From positions 341,381-405,380 of the forward strand of contig JACPBF010000001.1 in assembly GCA_016180425.1 (NCBI GenBank): a stretch of DNA of 64,000 bases, given 5' to 3'. Source of the stretch: Elusimicrobiota bacterium. Lineage in GTDB: Bacteria > Elusimicrobiota > Elusimicrobia > 2-02-FULL-39-32. Positions 48,401 to 54,400 of this stretch are shown here, piece by piece (the first letter of the stretch is position 1; each line of letters opens with the position of its first letter). A program made the position numbers.

Positions 48401-51400
48401 AGCGGCTTTCGGAGGATTTAATTTAATCGAATTCAAACCGGGCGAAGACTTTAGAATCTATCCTGTCACCATCAAAAGCGAAAGATTAAAAGACCTGCAT
48501 AAACACCTCTTATTGATTTTCACGGGCCTTTCCAGAATCGCTTCCGAAATCGCTGGACAGTTGGTGAAGACCGCGTCCCAAAAAAAAAAGGAATTAAAGG
48601 AAATCCATCAGATGGTTTATGAAGGGGTGGAGATTTTAAATGGCAAGAGGGAACTCTCCGATTTTGGACGATTGTTGCATGAAAGCTGGAAAATCAAGAG
48701 GAGCCTCTCCAGCAATATCTCAACTCCTCTCATCGACCAGATTTACCTTACCGCCATGAAAGAAGGGGCGTTGGGAGGAAAAATTTTGGGAGCTGGAGGA
48801 GGAGGATTCATATTGCTCTTTGCAAAGCCCCAAGATCATAAACGGATCAAAGCAAAATTAAAAGGTCTCCTGCATGTCCCTTTCCAATTTGAAAACACCG
48901 GTAGTCAAATTGTTTTTTATAGACGAGACGAATATGAATAAGGATCTATTTTTTCTATAATCGGAAGTTTGGTATGGAATTAAATAAGAGCGGGATTAAC
49001 TATCATCAGGTGATCGTCAACAAACCGTGGGGGCGCGAGTATTTAATGTATGAAAACGGAACCGTGGGCATTTGGTTTCTTCATATAGAAAAAGATGCCC
49101 GGACCTCGATGCATTGTCATCCCCACAAAAAGACCGGACTGATCTTGTTGTCAGGAGAAGCTGTCCTCTCTTTTCTCAACGATTCTACCCGCTTAAAACC
49201 CATCAGCAAAATGATGATCCGAGAAGGATTGTTCCACTCCACCCAAGCCGTTTCTGAAGGAGGAGTTTCTATCATCGAAGTTGAAACTCCGTGCGACAAA
49301 ACCAATTTGGTGCGGCTCGATGATGAATACGGACGCGAAGAAAAACCTTATGAGGGAAAAGATTCGATCGTTCCGATGACAAAAGATTGTTTAACCATGA
49401 ATCATCCTAAGGAAGGCCGTCCGGAGAAATATTCTTTAAGCGGCTGTATTTTATCGGCGGAAAAAATCACGGAAATCAAAGCATTAAGGGAAAGGCCGGC
49501 TGGGGAAATTGTAACCGTTTTAGATGGCGGACTTTACAGTAAAACGGATGAACCGGTATTAAACCCGGGAGACGTGGTATCTTCGGACACGCTTCACCGT
49601 CTCGCGGAAAGATTTTACTGTCCAAAAGGCATCTCCATTTTATCCATCAAAAAAGAAAAGATATAAATGCGTTCTCCACAACTGGGAATCATCGATGCTT
49701 TGCCCCAAACATTTTCCCAAACTCAAACTTTGGAAATGTTTAGAAAATGCTGCGTGAACCGCCACTTTGAAATAGAAACCGCAAAAGTTTATGATACCGG
49801 CGTCATCAAGATGCCCATCTATCTTTCTCTTGGGCAAGAGCATATCCCCGCGGCGATCTCAACCGTCACGAAAGATTTTCGAATTTTCGCTCAACACCGA
49901 GGCCATTCTTATTACCTCTCATTTGGAGGCGATATGCGTAAGCTGATTGACGAACTGCTTCATCGTTCCAGCGGATGCGCCCGAGGGATGGGAGGATCCG
50001 CTTCTATCCACGATCCAAAGATCGGAATGTATGGACACAGCGGCTTAATGGGAGATCAAGTCCCGGTTGCGGTTGGAATGGCGTTAGGTTCGCGCCAAAG
50101 AGTTTTGACGGTTGTGGGAGATGCTTCCGCCGAAGAAGATTATGTTTGGAGCGCAATGGGATATGCCGCCACAAAAAAACTCCCTGTTCTTTTAGTCTGC
50201 GAAGATAATGATCTTTCCATCCTAACTCACGTCTCCACCCGTCGCTCTTGGAGCATTGTGGAAATTGCGAAAGGGCTTGGGATGCAGGCGGTTGATATCG
50301 CGGATGACCCATGGTTAATCGCTCATCACGCGGCGCGACTACTAGATAGGCTTCCCGCCGTTATTAATATTCGCACCTGCCGCCATCGGTGGCACGCAGG
50401 AACCGGAACCGATGAAGAACCTGAATGGAACCGATTTCAATTATTCAAAGAAGAAATTTCAAAACTTGGTTTGAAAAACGAAGCGAAAAAAATTGAAGAT
50501 GAAACTCTAGAACTGGTGTGGAAAACATGGCAAGAACAGTTGCGGAAACCATAAAAGAAATCACAAAGAATCACCTCAAAAAAAATAATGGACTGCTCTT
50601 CGGGCAGTGCGTAACCGCCGTGGGCTGGATTGGCGGCACGGTTCCGGAAATGACAGAAGAAGAGGGAATCACCGAGCTCTCCATGGCCGACGTAGCGGGA
50701 GCAGGAATTGCGGTGGGAGCGGCTCTTTCTGGAAGAAGACCCATTTATGTGATCCGTTATCAAGGTTTTATGTGGTACAATGCCGCGCCCATCTTAAATT
50801 ATGCCGCTAAATCAAAAGAGATGTGGGGGGTTCCCTGTCCTCTATTTGTCCGCTCTTTAGCGATGGAAGGGGGCATGGGTCCTGTTGCTTCCGCAGCCCA
50901 CCACAGCATGGTTCTACGCATGCCCGGAATTCCCATCTGCGCCCCGATGACCCCTGGAGAATGTACCACAGCATGGGAATGGTTTATGTCCCATGATGAT
51001 CCAATTTACGTAAGTGAACATAGGAGAAGTTTCCCTGTCAACTACGAGATGGAACCTCAAATATACGAAAAAGCGGATGTCACAATCTTTGCTATCAGCG
51101 CGGCCCGTCTAAACGCCTTAGAAGCGGCAAAAAAATTAAAGGAAGAGGCAGGAATCACCTCCAACATTTTTCATATTTTTTGGCTAAAGCCATTCCAAAT
51201 CTCTGAGGAGATGATTAGAGCATTAAAAAAAACTGGATTGGGGTTGGTGATTGATTCGGACTATAGTATCGGCGGAGCCTCCCGATCGATCGCCTACGAA
51301 CTGATGTTGGCGTCTGGAGCCCCTGTCCATGCCCTGGGATTGGATGATAGAACGGGCGGGTTTGCTCCCCATTTAGATAACCCTACGCCACCTGTTGAGA

Positions 51401-54400
51401 AAATTGTAAATCTCATCAAAAATCTAACAGTAAAAAAAGAGACAGTCCCCAATACAAATTTGAACTCTTGACAGTGTTAAATTCCCCTGTTATATTCAAA
51501 AGAGCGGCCAAAAAATAGATATGAAAGTAGGGTTAGTACAAATCAATAACAGTTTTTCAGGACAAAATTACCTTCCTTATTCCGTAGGTATCCTTCAGGC
51601 TTATGCGCAAAAATATTTAAAAAATCCAAATGAATACCAATTTATGCTTCCCATCTACCGCCGCATTCCAGTTGAAGAAGCGGTCAATGCTCTAAAAGAT
51701 GCGGACATTGTTTTTTTCAGCATGTATGTTTGGAACAGCAGAATCTCATTGGAGATTGCAAAATCTCTTAAAAAAATAAAACCGGAAATTCTCACCATTT
51801 TTGGCGGACCTCACGTCCCGGACAGATCAGAGGAATTTTTAAGAAAAAATAATTTTATCGAAATCGCCTGCCACAATGAAGGGGAACAAGCTTTTGTCTC
51901 CATCTTAGAGAATGGTTTTAACCGCCGATGGGATGAAGTACCGTCCATCAGTTATCTTTCAAATGACAGTACCTACCACTTGACCCACCGCGCAGAGAGA
52001 ATTAAGGATCTATCAGTCATCCCGTCCCCTTACCTGAACGGAATCTTCGATCCTCTGATCCAAGCTAACCCAAATGAGCAATGGCTTTTCATGTGGGAAA
52101 CGAACCGCGGCTGTCCCTTTTCCTGCACATTTTGCGATTGGGGTTCAGCGACTCAAAGTAAAGTTTTTCAATTCGACATGGACCGTCTTGTAAAAGAACT
52201 CGAGTGGGTTGCAAAACATAAAATTGAATTTATGTTTTGCGCCGACGCGAATTTTGGAATTCTTCCCAGAGATTTAGACATCGTGCGCACGGCGGCGGAA
52301 ATGAAAAGGAAATTTGGATATCCGCAGGCGCTTTCAGTGCAAAACACAAAGAATGCAACCGAAAGAGCCTACCAGGTTCAAAAAACATTGGCCGAGTCTG
52401 GATTGAATAAGGGTGTAACGATCGCTTTTCAATCGGTCGATCCAACCACCCTAAAAAATATTAAGAGAGATAACATCTCCTCCGAATCTTTCCGCGAACT
52501 GCAGAGAAGATTTACGCGGGACGGAATTGAAACTTATAGCGACATGATTCTTGGCCTTCCAGGAGAGACCTACGATTCCTTTGCCGATGGTGTCTCCTCA
52601 ACAATAGAGAACGGACAGCACAACCGCATCCAGTTTGGCAACCTCTCCATTCTACCCAACGCCGAAATGGGCGACCCGGAATATCAAAAGAAATACGGTA
52701 TGGAAACGATTGAAATCCGGGAAGTGATCTACCACGGCATCATCACCACGTCCAACAAAGAACTTTCAGAAAGTTCTCAGCTGGTGATCGCCACAAATAC
52801 TACGCCGCGTAAAGATTGGGTCAGGTCGCGAGCCTTCGCATGGATGACCGCTCTCCTTCATTTTGACAAGATTCTTCAGATACCTTTGGTGCTCTTGCAC
52901 GAAACAAGCAAACTTTCTTATCGCGAACTGATCGAGATTTTTACCAAGGACAATTTGAAATCATTCCCAACTTGTTCCGAGATTCGCGACTTTTTTGTCA
53001 ATAAAGCGGCTCATATTCAAAACGGGGGAGAAGAATATTGCCCGGCTCCGGAATATTTAAATATCTGGTGGCCGGCAGACGAATATATTTTTATAAAGCT
53101 TACGCGGGAAAACAAATTGGAGATGTTCTACCAAGAAGCAGAACGAGCCCTCCTTCAAACCCTAGTAGAAAAATCGATCGAATTGCCGAAGGAACTGCTT
53201 TCGGAATCCATCAAACTCAACCGCAGTCTCATCAAACTGCCGCTCCAAACCAAGGATCTCGATATAGAACTTTCCTACAATATCTGGGATTTTTATCAAT
53301 CGGTCCTACGAGGGAAAACGGAAATTTTAGTCCAAAAACCAACTCACATCCGCATTAACCGCACCAGCAAACAGTGGTTCAGCTGGGATGAATGGGAAAG
53401 AGAGGTTGTTTGGTACGGCAACAAAAAAGGAGCCTATCTCTATAGCCAAACTAAACTGGTTCCGGAAATGGAGGGACATTTTTGAGTTTTGATTTTAAAA
53501 ACAAAAAGGTGTTAGTGGCCGGAGGAACAGGTTTGATCGGCATTCCACTGGTGGAACTTTTGATTGAACAGGAAAATGCGGATGTAACGATCGTCTCGTT
53601 AGATGACCGGTCGCGGGCTCACCCCAAAGCTAAATTCTTGCGGCTGGACTTATCTAAGTTCGAGAACTGCCTTAATTCCTGCAAAGAGATGGATTTCGTC
53701 TTTAATCTTTTATGCGTCAAAGGTTCTCCTGCCGTCACTCGTCTCAAACCCGCAACCTTTTTTGTTTCTCATCTTACTTTCAATACGAACTTGATGGAAG
53801 CGGCCCGACAATGCGGCGTCAAAGGATTTCTATTTACCAGCTCGCTTGCGGTTTACAGCCCGGCGGAAATTTTTTATGAAGAGGATGTCTGGAAAACTTT
53901 TCCGTCTGAAAACGACAAGTTTGCGGGTTGGGCGAAAAGAATGGGGGAACTGCAAGCAGAGGCGTACAAAATTGAACACGGCTGGAACAACATCTCGATC
54001 GTGCGTCCGGCAAATGTTTACGGCCCTTATGATAATTTTGAATTAGAAAACGCGATGGTGATCCCTTCGCTTATTAAGAAAGCGGTAGAGGGGAAAAATC
54101 CTCTGCATGTTTGGGGAGACGGCTCTCAAGTTAGAGATTTTATCCATTCTAGAGATGTTGCCAAAGGCATTCTGATGGTTGCAAAATCTGAAGAGAGAAA
54201 ACCAGTCAATCTTGGCAGTGGAGTTGGAGTATCAATCAAAGAGCTTCTAAGCACGATACTCTCCTATTCTCCCGCAAAGCTGGAAATAGAGTGGGACATC
54301 TCCAAACCTTCAGGAGACAAATACAGAGTTTTAGATACCGCCCGGGCAAAAGCGCTCGGCTTTGAGCCCTCAATTTCTTTAAAGAACGGTATTCGCCAAA

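Follow-up and report, generated by a model that had tools for sequence, protein, structure and literature searches.

A 64,000-nucleotide stretch of the genome of an Elusimicrobiota bacterium (the window; contig JACPBF010000001.1, positions 341,381 to 405,380 of the forward strand) carries, inside a sugar-nucleotide operon, a pair of overlapping genes that resemble the alpha and beta subunits of a 2-oxoacid dehydrogenase E1 (49667..50554 and 50527..51471). Our favored reading, to which we assign a probability of roughly 55%, is that this pair is a lipoate-independent thiamine diphosphate (ThDP) carboligase acting on a 4-keto-3,6-dideoxy sugar, probably GDP-linked, to which it adds a branch in the way of AviB1/B2 and KbDH. 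The reading builds on direct observations, i.e., the identity of the genes, the absence of E2 and E3 partners, the non-canonical catalytic residues, and a pattern of co-conservation and fusion with other proteins in related loci.

The E1-like pair and its catalytic residues

The alpha gene starts with ATG and encodes a ThDP-binding (PP-domain) subunit of 295 amino acids, which matches Pfam E1_dh with 56.6 bits and TPP_enzyme_C with 26 bits, the latter match being partial and lying on the ThDP motif only. The beta gene encodes 314 amino acids, with a Pyr domain (Transket_pyr) followed by a C-terminal domain (Transketolase_C). Together, the two show the Pfam domain layout of a heterotetrameric 2-oxoacid dehydrogenase E1. 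The mechanically called beta open reading frame (ORF) spans 50518-51471 with a GTG start at 50518; the likely biological start is the ATG at 50527. Since all beta homologues begin with M(A/G)RTVAETI and the public gene call of an identical contig begins at the same ATG, this start is almost certain, and alpha and beta therefore overlap by 28 nt. The stop codon of a cupin gene (TAA, 49664-49666) immediately precedes the alpha ATG at 49667, and beta is followed by a gene for a B12-binding radical S-adenosylmethionine (SAM) protein (51521-53485). A protein identical to the window's alpha is in a public record from an Elusimicrobia metagenome-assembled genome (MAG), and 1912 alpha homologues were retrieved, the best 120 of which are 65-100% identical, showing that the pair is conserved far beyond chance. 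Both ORFs are real, conserved genes in a same-strand sugar operon. In some family representatives, a fusion of alpha and beta is implied, with the beta domain at about residues 320-620 (P0242, 628 aa; P0252, 619 aa).

The search for E2 and E3 used as queries the proteins of two genuine rhizobial plasmid operons (L040 and L041), which are about 30% identical in alpha; in both, E2 lies directly downstream of E1, and one also has E3 and LipA. With these E2 and E3 sequences, the best tblastn match in the window had E = 0.95, and the related loci searched gave none at E ≤ 1e-3; altogether, no E2 or E3 homologue was seen in 35 related loci. Pfam scans of the large ORFs of the window found no lipoyl, 2-oxoacid_dh or Pyr_redox domain, and no E2 or E3 domains were found in the Pfam lists of five related loci. 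An overlapping public contig (L038) extends 1.3 kb past the window end, where it holds two further short-chain dehydrogenase/reductase (SDR) genes and no E2 or E3. Searching a plasmid collection with alpha yielded no member of the family; all matches were genuine E1 operons that include E2/E3 and are about 30% identical, and these served as outgroups. An earlier interpretation of this DNA, the sequence-only reading, had described an E1-like alpha/beta pair without an E2 or E3 partner between a cupin and a B12 radical SAM gene. Its coordinates and description agree with the Pfam matches and ORF calls, and the absence of E2/E3 is borne out by tblastn and Pfam in the window, in the 1.3 kb beyond it and in the related loci. 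Nor does the pair cluster tightly with genuine E1 proteins or stand before an E2 gene just past the window end, the outcomes that this reading had set against itself: identity between alpha and the E1 alpha subunits with a neighboring E2 is 23-29%, and only SDR genes follow in L038.

The best Pfam, NCBIfam and PDB matches of the pair are pyruvate dehydrogenase (PDH) E1 subunits; however, alpha reaches only 114 bits against TIGR03182 (cut-off 394) and beta 68 bits against PRK09212 (cut-off 321). Alpha is also shorter at both ends than the 344-aa genuine E1 alpha subunits. It keeps the ThDP/Mg motif GDAS...CEDN as well as HRxH and CRHRWHAG, the His of the last aligning with the GH of the canonical YRxxGHS motif, and with these motifs in place cofactor binding and decarboxylation chemistry look intact. 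The beta subunit departs further. Where genuine E1 beta has the ThDP-activating Glu (TPISE), the window and most of its clade have Asp (LSMAD), and the position of the QHSQ His is taken by Ala (GPVAS) across the window's clade. Both substitutions were concordant in HMMER alignments against the Geobacillus and Pyrobaculum E1 beta subunits, in MAFFT, and in an hhalign profile-profile comparison (probability 99.8). The QHSQ His of E1 beta serves the reductive acylation of lipoamide, and its replacement by Ala fits a loss of the E2-directed half-reaction. To our knowledge, Asp in place of the activating Glu is without precedent. The full-length representatives form a gradient: Glu and His are both retained in distant members, Asp goes together with His in some others, and both positions are changed, to Asp and Ala, in the window's clade. 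In an HMMER scan of 1.84 billion representatives, only 83 clusters were found at E ≤ 1e-30, with canonical E1 beta clearly apart at about 1e-17. The conserved Glu that activates ThDP through N1′ is regarded as near-universal (PMC6270654, citing Kaplun et al. 2008).

Other ThDP architectures were also compared. A split transketolase or 1-deoxy-D-xylulose 5-phosphate (DXP) synthase is not favored by the alpha scores, the E1_dh match given above standing against 20 bits for DXP_synthase_N and 20-23 bits for the transketolase NCBIfam model. Enzymes of the YerE type are single chains with TPP_enzyme_N/M/C domains that bind FAD, whereas the window has two E1/transketolase-type subunits. A phosphonopyruvate or sulfopyruvate decarboxylase was considered because two of the radical SAM genes in the operon resemble P-methyltransferases; it was rejected, as the fold is that of E1/transketolase and no phosphoenolpyruvate mutase was seen.

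Distribution and partner genes

Homologues of alpha at 46-79% identity occur in MAGs of more than 10 phyla. Their hosts include Elusimicrobiota, Omnitrophota, Planctomycetia, Acidobacteriota/Terriglobia, Chloroflexota, many Nitrospira, Bdellovibrionales, Gemmatimonadaceae and the actinobacterial Ilumatobacteraceae, together with three lineages of the Candidate Phyla Radiation (CPR) and a Woesearchaeote, i.e., a DPANN archaeon. A search with the cupin also located the cluster in a cultured species, Geomonas limicola (contig BLXZ01000004.1, positions 31259-51963). The G+C content of the window is 0.44-0.45 between 48000 and 54000, compared with 0.33-0.40 in most of the remainder, and this G+C-rich part coincides with the most conserved core, which consists of a sugar kinase, the cupin (a bicupin), the E1 pair and the first radical SAM gene. 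The core G+C of 44-45%, taken with the high identity across phyla, indicates horizontal spread of the module under strong constraint.

Neighbor counts refer to 22 well-flanked loci, which have at least 8 kb upstream and at least 9 kb downstream of E1 alpha. SDR genes are found in all 22, a GHMP kinase in 21 and radical SAM genes in 19. A ColD-type DegT gene is present in 16, with an additional truncated copy in Geomonas; bicupin and DJ-1 family genes occur in 15 each; and an adh_short reductase and a ManC/HddC-like nucleotidyltransferase occur in 12 each. An aldo-keto reductase (AKR) is found in three (L019, L036, L042). Seven loci have neither bicupin nor DJ-1, six of them from Nitrospira or Nitrospiraceae and the seventh being the alpha-proximal Geomonas locus. 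The Nitrospira loci (L020-L025, L027, at about 7800-9970) instead have an adh_short reductase (317 aa) and a class I/II aminotransferase (400 aa) directly upstream of alpha, in the place that DJ-1 and the bicupin hold elsewhere. Eleven loci contain a HAD_2 protein, which scores best as a BT2127-type pyrophosphatase. The KedN5-like radical SAM gene that follows E1 beta in the window is in the same position in five related loci (L003, L013, L015, L017, L036) and elsewhere in the cluster in L010 and L019; these seven copies are 62-72% identical to that of the window. The archaeal locus L033 has a 44% identical copy on the opposite strand.

The bicupin is closely tied to the pair. In seven loci (L007, L008, L009, L011, L012, L014, L016), from four Omnitrophota, one Acidobacteriota and two unclassified MAGs, bicupin and E1 alpha form a single ORF of 527-572 aa (e.g., L012 5264-6982), joined by a short linker rich in Lys, Ala and Glu. 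His47, His49 and His88 of the bicupin are invariant, as are several acidic and basic residues. Its AlphaFold2 (AF2) model (pLDDT 91) matches only generic metal cupins and bicupins, including cysteine dioxygenase, the CapF cupin, archaeal phosphomannose isomerase (PMI), lyxose isomerase, oxalate decarboxylase, BacB and AerE. The DJ-1 gene usually adjoins the cupin in the related loci. In one Terriglobia genome (L001/L015, about 7750-10000), an insertion sequence with a DDE_Tnp_1 transposase separates the cupin from E1 alpha, and the cupin is encoded by a shortened ORF of 171 aa.

Operon, sugar acceptor and candidate pathway

The operon consists of 18 genes on the forward strand, separated by short gaps or overlapping, from 44543 to the window end. 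At its head is a membrane glycosyltransferase (GT) of the GT-C type (44543..46150; PMT_2/ArnT-like, Pfam PMT_2), followed by an SDR like the nucleoside diphosphate (NDP)-sugar 4,6-dehydratases (46256..47197; Pfam GDP_Man_Dehyd 163 bits, with LegB at 183 and RmlB at 148 bits, both below cut-off) and a GT2 resembling polyprenyl-phosphate glycosyltransferases (47170..47928; Glycos_transf_2, AglJ/dolichyl-phosphate hexose transferase-like), which is present in 10 loci. A heptose-phosphate-kinase-like GHMP sugar kinase (47946..48941; NF049969 HddA 146 bits, cut-off 600) and the bicupin (48974..49666; an HxH...H metal site, weak MannoseP_isomer/Cupin_2 matches) precede the E1 pair. Downstream of the pair are the B12-binding radical SAM protein (51521..53485), which resembles the KedN5 family of C-methyltransferases (NF033712 274 bits, cut-off 700), and a GDP-L-fucose-synthase-like SDR, an epimerase/reductase (53482..54471; NF047922 156 bits, cut-off 500). 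These are followed by a HemN-like radical SAM protein (54520..55965; TIGR00538 414 bits, above the cut-off of 325), a B12-binding radical SAM protein (55970..57817), a PhyH-type Fe(II)/2-oxoglutarate dioxygenase (57886..58629; Pfam PhyH 79 bits), which occurs in seven loci, a second GDP-L-fucose-synthase-like SDR (58656..59645; NF047922 159 bits), a NUDIX hydrolase (59632..60168) and a B12-binding-like radical SAM protein (60180..61517), with the genes at 55970, 59632 and 60180 assigned by family-model scans. The operon continues with a PfpI/DJ-1 family protein (61673..62191; Pfam 167 bits, best PDB match PH1704), a ColD-type pyridoxamine phosphate (PMP)-dependent 3-dehydratase of the DegT family (62227..63396; best PDB match ColD 2gms, E 1e-48), and a third GDP-L-fucose-synthase-like SDR (63393..64000; 181 bits) that is cut by the window end and has 309 aa in L038. 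The ORF at 62227 opens with TTG; its likely start is the ATG at 62233, which the public gene call uses.

We note some further features of the operon and its surroundings. Four radical SAM genes stand in this one sugar operon (51521-53485, 54520-55965, 55970-57817, 60180-61517). L007 has the HemN-like gene as well, and in Geomonas (L042 13507-16860) its product is joined with a B12 radical SAM protein in a fusion of 1117 aa. The PDB matches of the PhyH protein include no solved orthosomycin oxygenase, and a role as an AviO2-like partner is not supported. A complete Arn-like set of the lipid A aminoarabinose type lies at 22208-29634 and comprises a Lys-type DegT aminotransferase, a GT2, a PAP2-ArnT fusion of 735 aa, a formyltransferase, an SDR and a polysaccharide deacetylase. 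Further pairs of GT-C (PMT_2) and GT2 genes are found at 30979-32948 and 44543-47928, the latter bracketing the start of the E1 sugar operon, so that the window has three polyprenyl-phosphate-type decoration systems, counting the Arn-like set. A gene for ThiC, the thiamine pyrimidine synthase, is present at 4626-6482, 43 kb upstream of the ThDP pair, which is probably a coincidence.

The acceptor can be approached through the dehydratases. The pathway of the window has both the LegB/RmlB-like SDR and the ColD-type enzyme, a combination expected to yield a keto-deoxysugar. The 62227 protein aligns over its full length with ColD and has its own His on ColD His188, in place of the lysine that binds pyridoxal phosphate (PLP). 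His is also at this position in all 20 DegT homologues near the E1 family in related loci; the only Lys-type DegT seen is the unrelated ArnB-like gene upstream in the window. The His-type DegT throughout suggests that the pathway makes the 4-keto-3,6-dideoxy acceptor class that YerE-type enzymes branch. As for the nucleotide, GDP-L-fucose synthase is the top-scoring family for three SDRs of the window and ManC/HddC for the nucleotidyltransferases in related loci, which, together with ColD, make GDP the likely carrier. The ColD-like 3-dehydratase and the GDP linkage had both been proposed in the sequence-only reading; the former is upheld, and the latter is plausible. In contrast, the hexose implied by its yersiniose- or eurekanate-like sugar is in doubt. 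The best PDB matches of the GHMP kinase are the heptose-phosphate kinases 3k85, 4n3o and WcbL, and the scaffold may thus be a heptose. Two loci (L036, L032) have GmhA and GmhB genes adjoining the kinase, and in the archaeal locus (L033 13208-15247, minus strand) the kinase is fused to a nucleotidyltransferase in a 679-aa ORF.

A candidate pathway can be drawn from these assignments, in which an alpha2beta2-type ThDP enzyme that has departed from the 2-oxoacid dehydrogenase complexes would serve nucleotide-sugar tailoring. The heptose-type GHMP kinase would yield a sugar 1-phosphate, activated probably as a GDP-sugar; the SDR at 46256 would carry out C4/C6 dehydration; and the ColD-type enzyme at 62227 would deoxygenate C3 to give the 4-keto-3,6-dideoxy sugar. 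Decarboxylation of a 2-oxo acid by the E1-like pair, with pyruvate as the donor suggested by known cases, would then leave an acyl-carbanion/enamine bound to ThDP, and this carbanion would attack the keto group of the sugar, forming a tertiary alcohol with a C-acyl (acetyl) branch. Tailoring by the reductases, the B12 radical SAM methylases and the PhyH oxygenase may follow. For processing of the branch ketone, many of the related loci offer an AKR, an adh_short reductase or a class I/II aminotransferase. Finally, the GT2/GT-C pair would export the product via polyprenyl phosphate to an envelope acceptor, a delivery route suggested by the presence of these two genes at the operon head, near the Arn-like set and another GT2/GT-C pair. 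The chemical steps, the donor, the acceptor, the nucleotide and the branch position are all predicted here from family knowledge and gene association.

Alternative explanations and known systems

Several points weigh against the carboligase reading. Four related sugar clusters contain a second, canonical E1 alpha/beta pair, in which Glu and His are kept and the C-terminal tail is KGPF. Its genes lie at L005 11793-13796, at L010 18827-19804, at L035 1869-3900, where an adh_short reductase follows, and in L007 as alpha (1775-2743) and beta (3945-5000) with a ColD-like gene (2746-3936) between them. These second pairs are of Pau11/Pau12 size and could be the real acetyl-branching enzymes, and their presence suggests that the Asp/Ala clade may have a role other than plain acetyl branching. 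The Asp in place of the activating Glu could likewise mean a different chemistry. In the window, no nucleotidyltransferase was found, nor a dedicated adh_short or AKR ketoreductase, its candidates being the Fcl-like SDRs and the PhyH oxygenase. A simple carboligase model does not account for the bicupin link and fusion or for the DJ-1 link. Lastly, the kinship of the clade to AviB1/B2, Pau11/12, AlmDI/II and KbDH is judged by the published descriptions of these enzymes, and is thus presumptive.

A special donor, or else a coupled isomerisation, is hinted at by the fused bicupin and the linked DJ-1 protein. The same carboligation may use a longer or functionalized 2-oxo acid, prepared or delivered by the bicupin and/or DJ-1, to give a long branch as in erwiniose, caryophyllose and gastriose. 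The donors of YerE homologues do include hydroxylated 2-oxo acids of C4-C8 (PMC9306805). The bicupin is as similar to metal bicupins acting on 2-oxo acids (BacB, AerE, oxalate decarboxylase) as to sugar isomerases, and it is fused to alpha in seven loci; moreover, in the four clusters with a second canonical pair, the plain acetyl branch could come from that pair. Directly upstream of DJ-1/E1, the Geomonas locus contains a GD_AH sugar-acid dehydratase, of the kind that makes 2-keto-3-deoxy acids. However, GD_AH is found in this one locus only and was dropped as a general donor-forming enzyme, and for E1-type branching enzymes none but C2 donors are on record to date (review, PMC12247030), so that we regard a long donor as rather unlikely. 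An isomerisation would fit a transketolase/DXP-synthase-like chain extension of an aldose phosphate before nucleotide activation, with the PMI-like cupin isomerising the ketose and the GHMP kinase, a phosphatase and the nucleotidyltransferase activating the product, comparable to the route from sedoheptulose to GDP-heptose. The cupin, besides its fusion to E1 alpha, is weakly mannose-6-phosphate-isomerase-like with a KPWG motif; a GHMP kinase, HAD and NTP_transferase module travels with the pair; and E1 and transketolase share a fold. This alternative is nevertheless distinctly unlikely: GmhA and GmhB beside the same kinase in L036 and L032 mean that a heptose phosphate needs no new C–C bond, alpha scores as E1_dh and not as Transketolase_N or DXP_synthase, the HAD_2 protein scores best as a pyrophosphatase, and the presence of a ColD-type dehydratase in most loci suggests that a keto-sugar nucleotide is what reacts.

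The pair could also act without any sugar carboligation, as a ThDP decarboxylase or acyloin-cleaving enzyme that, for example, trims a keto-acid sugar or supplies an aldehyde, with DJ-1 detoxifying dicarbonyl by-products. DJ-1/PfpI proteins act on 2-oxoaldehydes, and the PDB match PH1704 of the window's protein is a deglycase. Within the E1 family, acetoin:DCPIP oxidoreductase cleaves acyloins and diketones (PMC12247030). However, a keto-acid sugar synthase of the NeuB/KdsA type is not consistently present, one being found in L036 only, and the constant partners of the pair are keto-sugar-forming enzymes and ketoreductases, making cleavage alone improbable. An ordinary pyruvate, acetoin or branched-chain 2-oxoacid dehydrogenase E1, with E2 and E3 encoded elsewhere, is scarcely credible. 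It has in its favor the top Pfam, NCBIfam and PDB matches to PDH E1 subunits, but the sub-cut-off scores of both subunits, the 23-29% identity to E1s with adjacent E2/E3, the replacement of the catalytic Glu and His in beta, the lack of E2/E3 in 36 loci, and the location of the pair, always inside sugar operons, speak against it.

The favored carboligase reading can be carried further, with correspondingly less confidence. In a tentative extension, which we hold to be well short of even odds, the Asp/Ala clade together with the bicupin and DJ-1 would form a distinct ThDP machine, the first natural lineage with Asp for the activating Glu, which builds an undescribed C-branched, multiply C-methylated 3,6-dideoxy heptose-derived envelope sugar and has spread horizontally across over ten phyla, CPR bacteria and DPANN archaea among them. 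Independent of this extension, the clade represents a hitherto undescribed group of E1-derived, E2-independent ThDP enzymes whose catalytic residues are non-canonical, whose genes lie in widely transferred envelope deoxysugar operons, and which have a bicupin either fused to them or next to them. E1-type sugar-branching enzymes were known only from actinomycete antibiotic pathways, and the branched sugars of Gram-negative surfaces have been ascribed to the unrelated YerE type; the locus suggests that an E1-derived lineage branches envelope-glycan sugars in a large share of the uncultivated bacteria, and in a DPANN archaeon as well. New branched, C-methylated deoxysugars are thus predicted. The clade is also a natural case of Asp standing in for the conserved cofactor-activating Glu, and a new partner protein is indicated by the Rosetta-stone fusion of bicupin and E1 alpha. 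Either lead is open to direct test, since the cultured Geomonas limicola has the cluster too. In addition, enzymes that form chiral tertiary alcohols are sought as biocatalysts.

Like AviB1/B2, Pau11/12, KbDH and the products of the aldgamycin branching genes AlmDI/DII, the pair consists of separate E1-like alpha and beta subunits, without E2/E3, in a keto-deoxysugar pathway. Such E1-type branching enzymes are a recognized class, termed alphaKADH2, with members in the aldgamycin, paulomycin, trioxacarcin, kosinostatin and kibdelomycin pathways and about 120 clusters (PMC12247030), so that AviB1/AviB2 are not the only precedent, as had been claimed in the sequence-only reading. These pairs put a pyruvate-derived acetyl branch on the C3 or C4 keto group of deoxysugars. 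For aldgamycin the evidence is genetic (PMC12247030), paulomycin is no longer produced once pau11 is knocked out (PMC4425429), and in vitro assays exist for KbDH (PMC12247030). The branch ketone is afterwards reduced by the AKR Pau7 in paulomycin (PMC4753412), and acetyl branches are later reduced, transaminated (kibdelomycin), methylated or oxidized (PMC12247030, PMC4425429, PMC4753412). Reductases or an aminotransferase that could act in this way accompany the pair in many of the related loci, the window having Fcl-like SDRs and the PhyH oxygenase. However, the window's pair is located in operons of an envelope-glycan type, with GT2 and GT-C, a heptose-type kinase and a ColD-type dehydratase, and its hosts are uncultivated Gram-negative phyla, CPR bacteria and DPANN archaea, in contrast to the actinomycetes of the antibiotic pairs. 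Its subunits, of 295 and 314 aa, are smaller than Pau11/Pau12 (325/345 aa; PMC4425429), and a bicupin partner, fused in seven loci, a DJ-1 partner, and Asp and Ala in beta set the clade apart from the AviB1/B2-type enzymes. Hence, given also the second canonical pair in four loci, the pair is not an ordinary member of this class. The earlier interpretation is thus partly borne out: the orphan E1-like pair, the sugar-nucleotide operon and the ColD-like enzyme stand and GDP is plausible, whereas the sole precedent does not hold and the hexose is in doubt.

The likeness to the YerE-type lipopolysaccharide enzymes lies in the setting and the chemistry. As with YerE, ErwE, MygE and the M. marinum caryophyllose enzyme, which branch 4-keto-3,6-dideoxy sugars (PMC9306805), the setting is a cell-surface glycan and the acceptor a 4-keto-3,6-dideoxy sugar made by a PMP-dependent 3-dehydratase. 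YerE-type enzymes yield a tertiary alcohol whose acyl branch undergoes reduction afterwards (PMC9306805), a product of the type proposed here. However, YerE is a single-chain flavoprotein of the acetolactate-synthase/decarboxylase superfamily that acts on CDP-sugars, whereas the enzyme of the window has two subunits of the E1/transketolase fold and belongs to a GDP-looking pathway.

Finally, the pair shares with genuine E1 alpha2beta2 enzymes (rhizobial L040/L041, Geobacillus 1w85, human 1ni4) the domain layout, the ThDP/Mg motif and the YRxxGH-type His of alpha, and it differs from them in the absence of E2/E3, the low identity, the sub-cut-off scores, the Glu-to-Asp and His-to-Ala replacements in beta, and an alpha truncated at both ends. 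The colitose pathway (Gmd-ColD-ColC) and the GDP-heptose pathways of Campylobacter and Burkholderia resemble the operon in the ColD-like dehydratase, the Fcl/ColC-like reductases, the HddA/WcbL-like kinase and, in related loci, the HddC/ManC-like transferase, whereas the ThDP enzyme, the radical SAM methylases, the bicupin and DJ-1 are additions for which these pathways have no counterpart.

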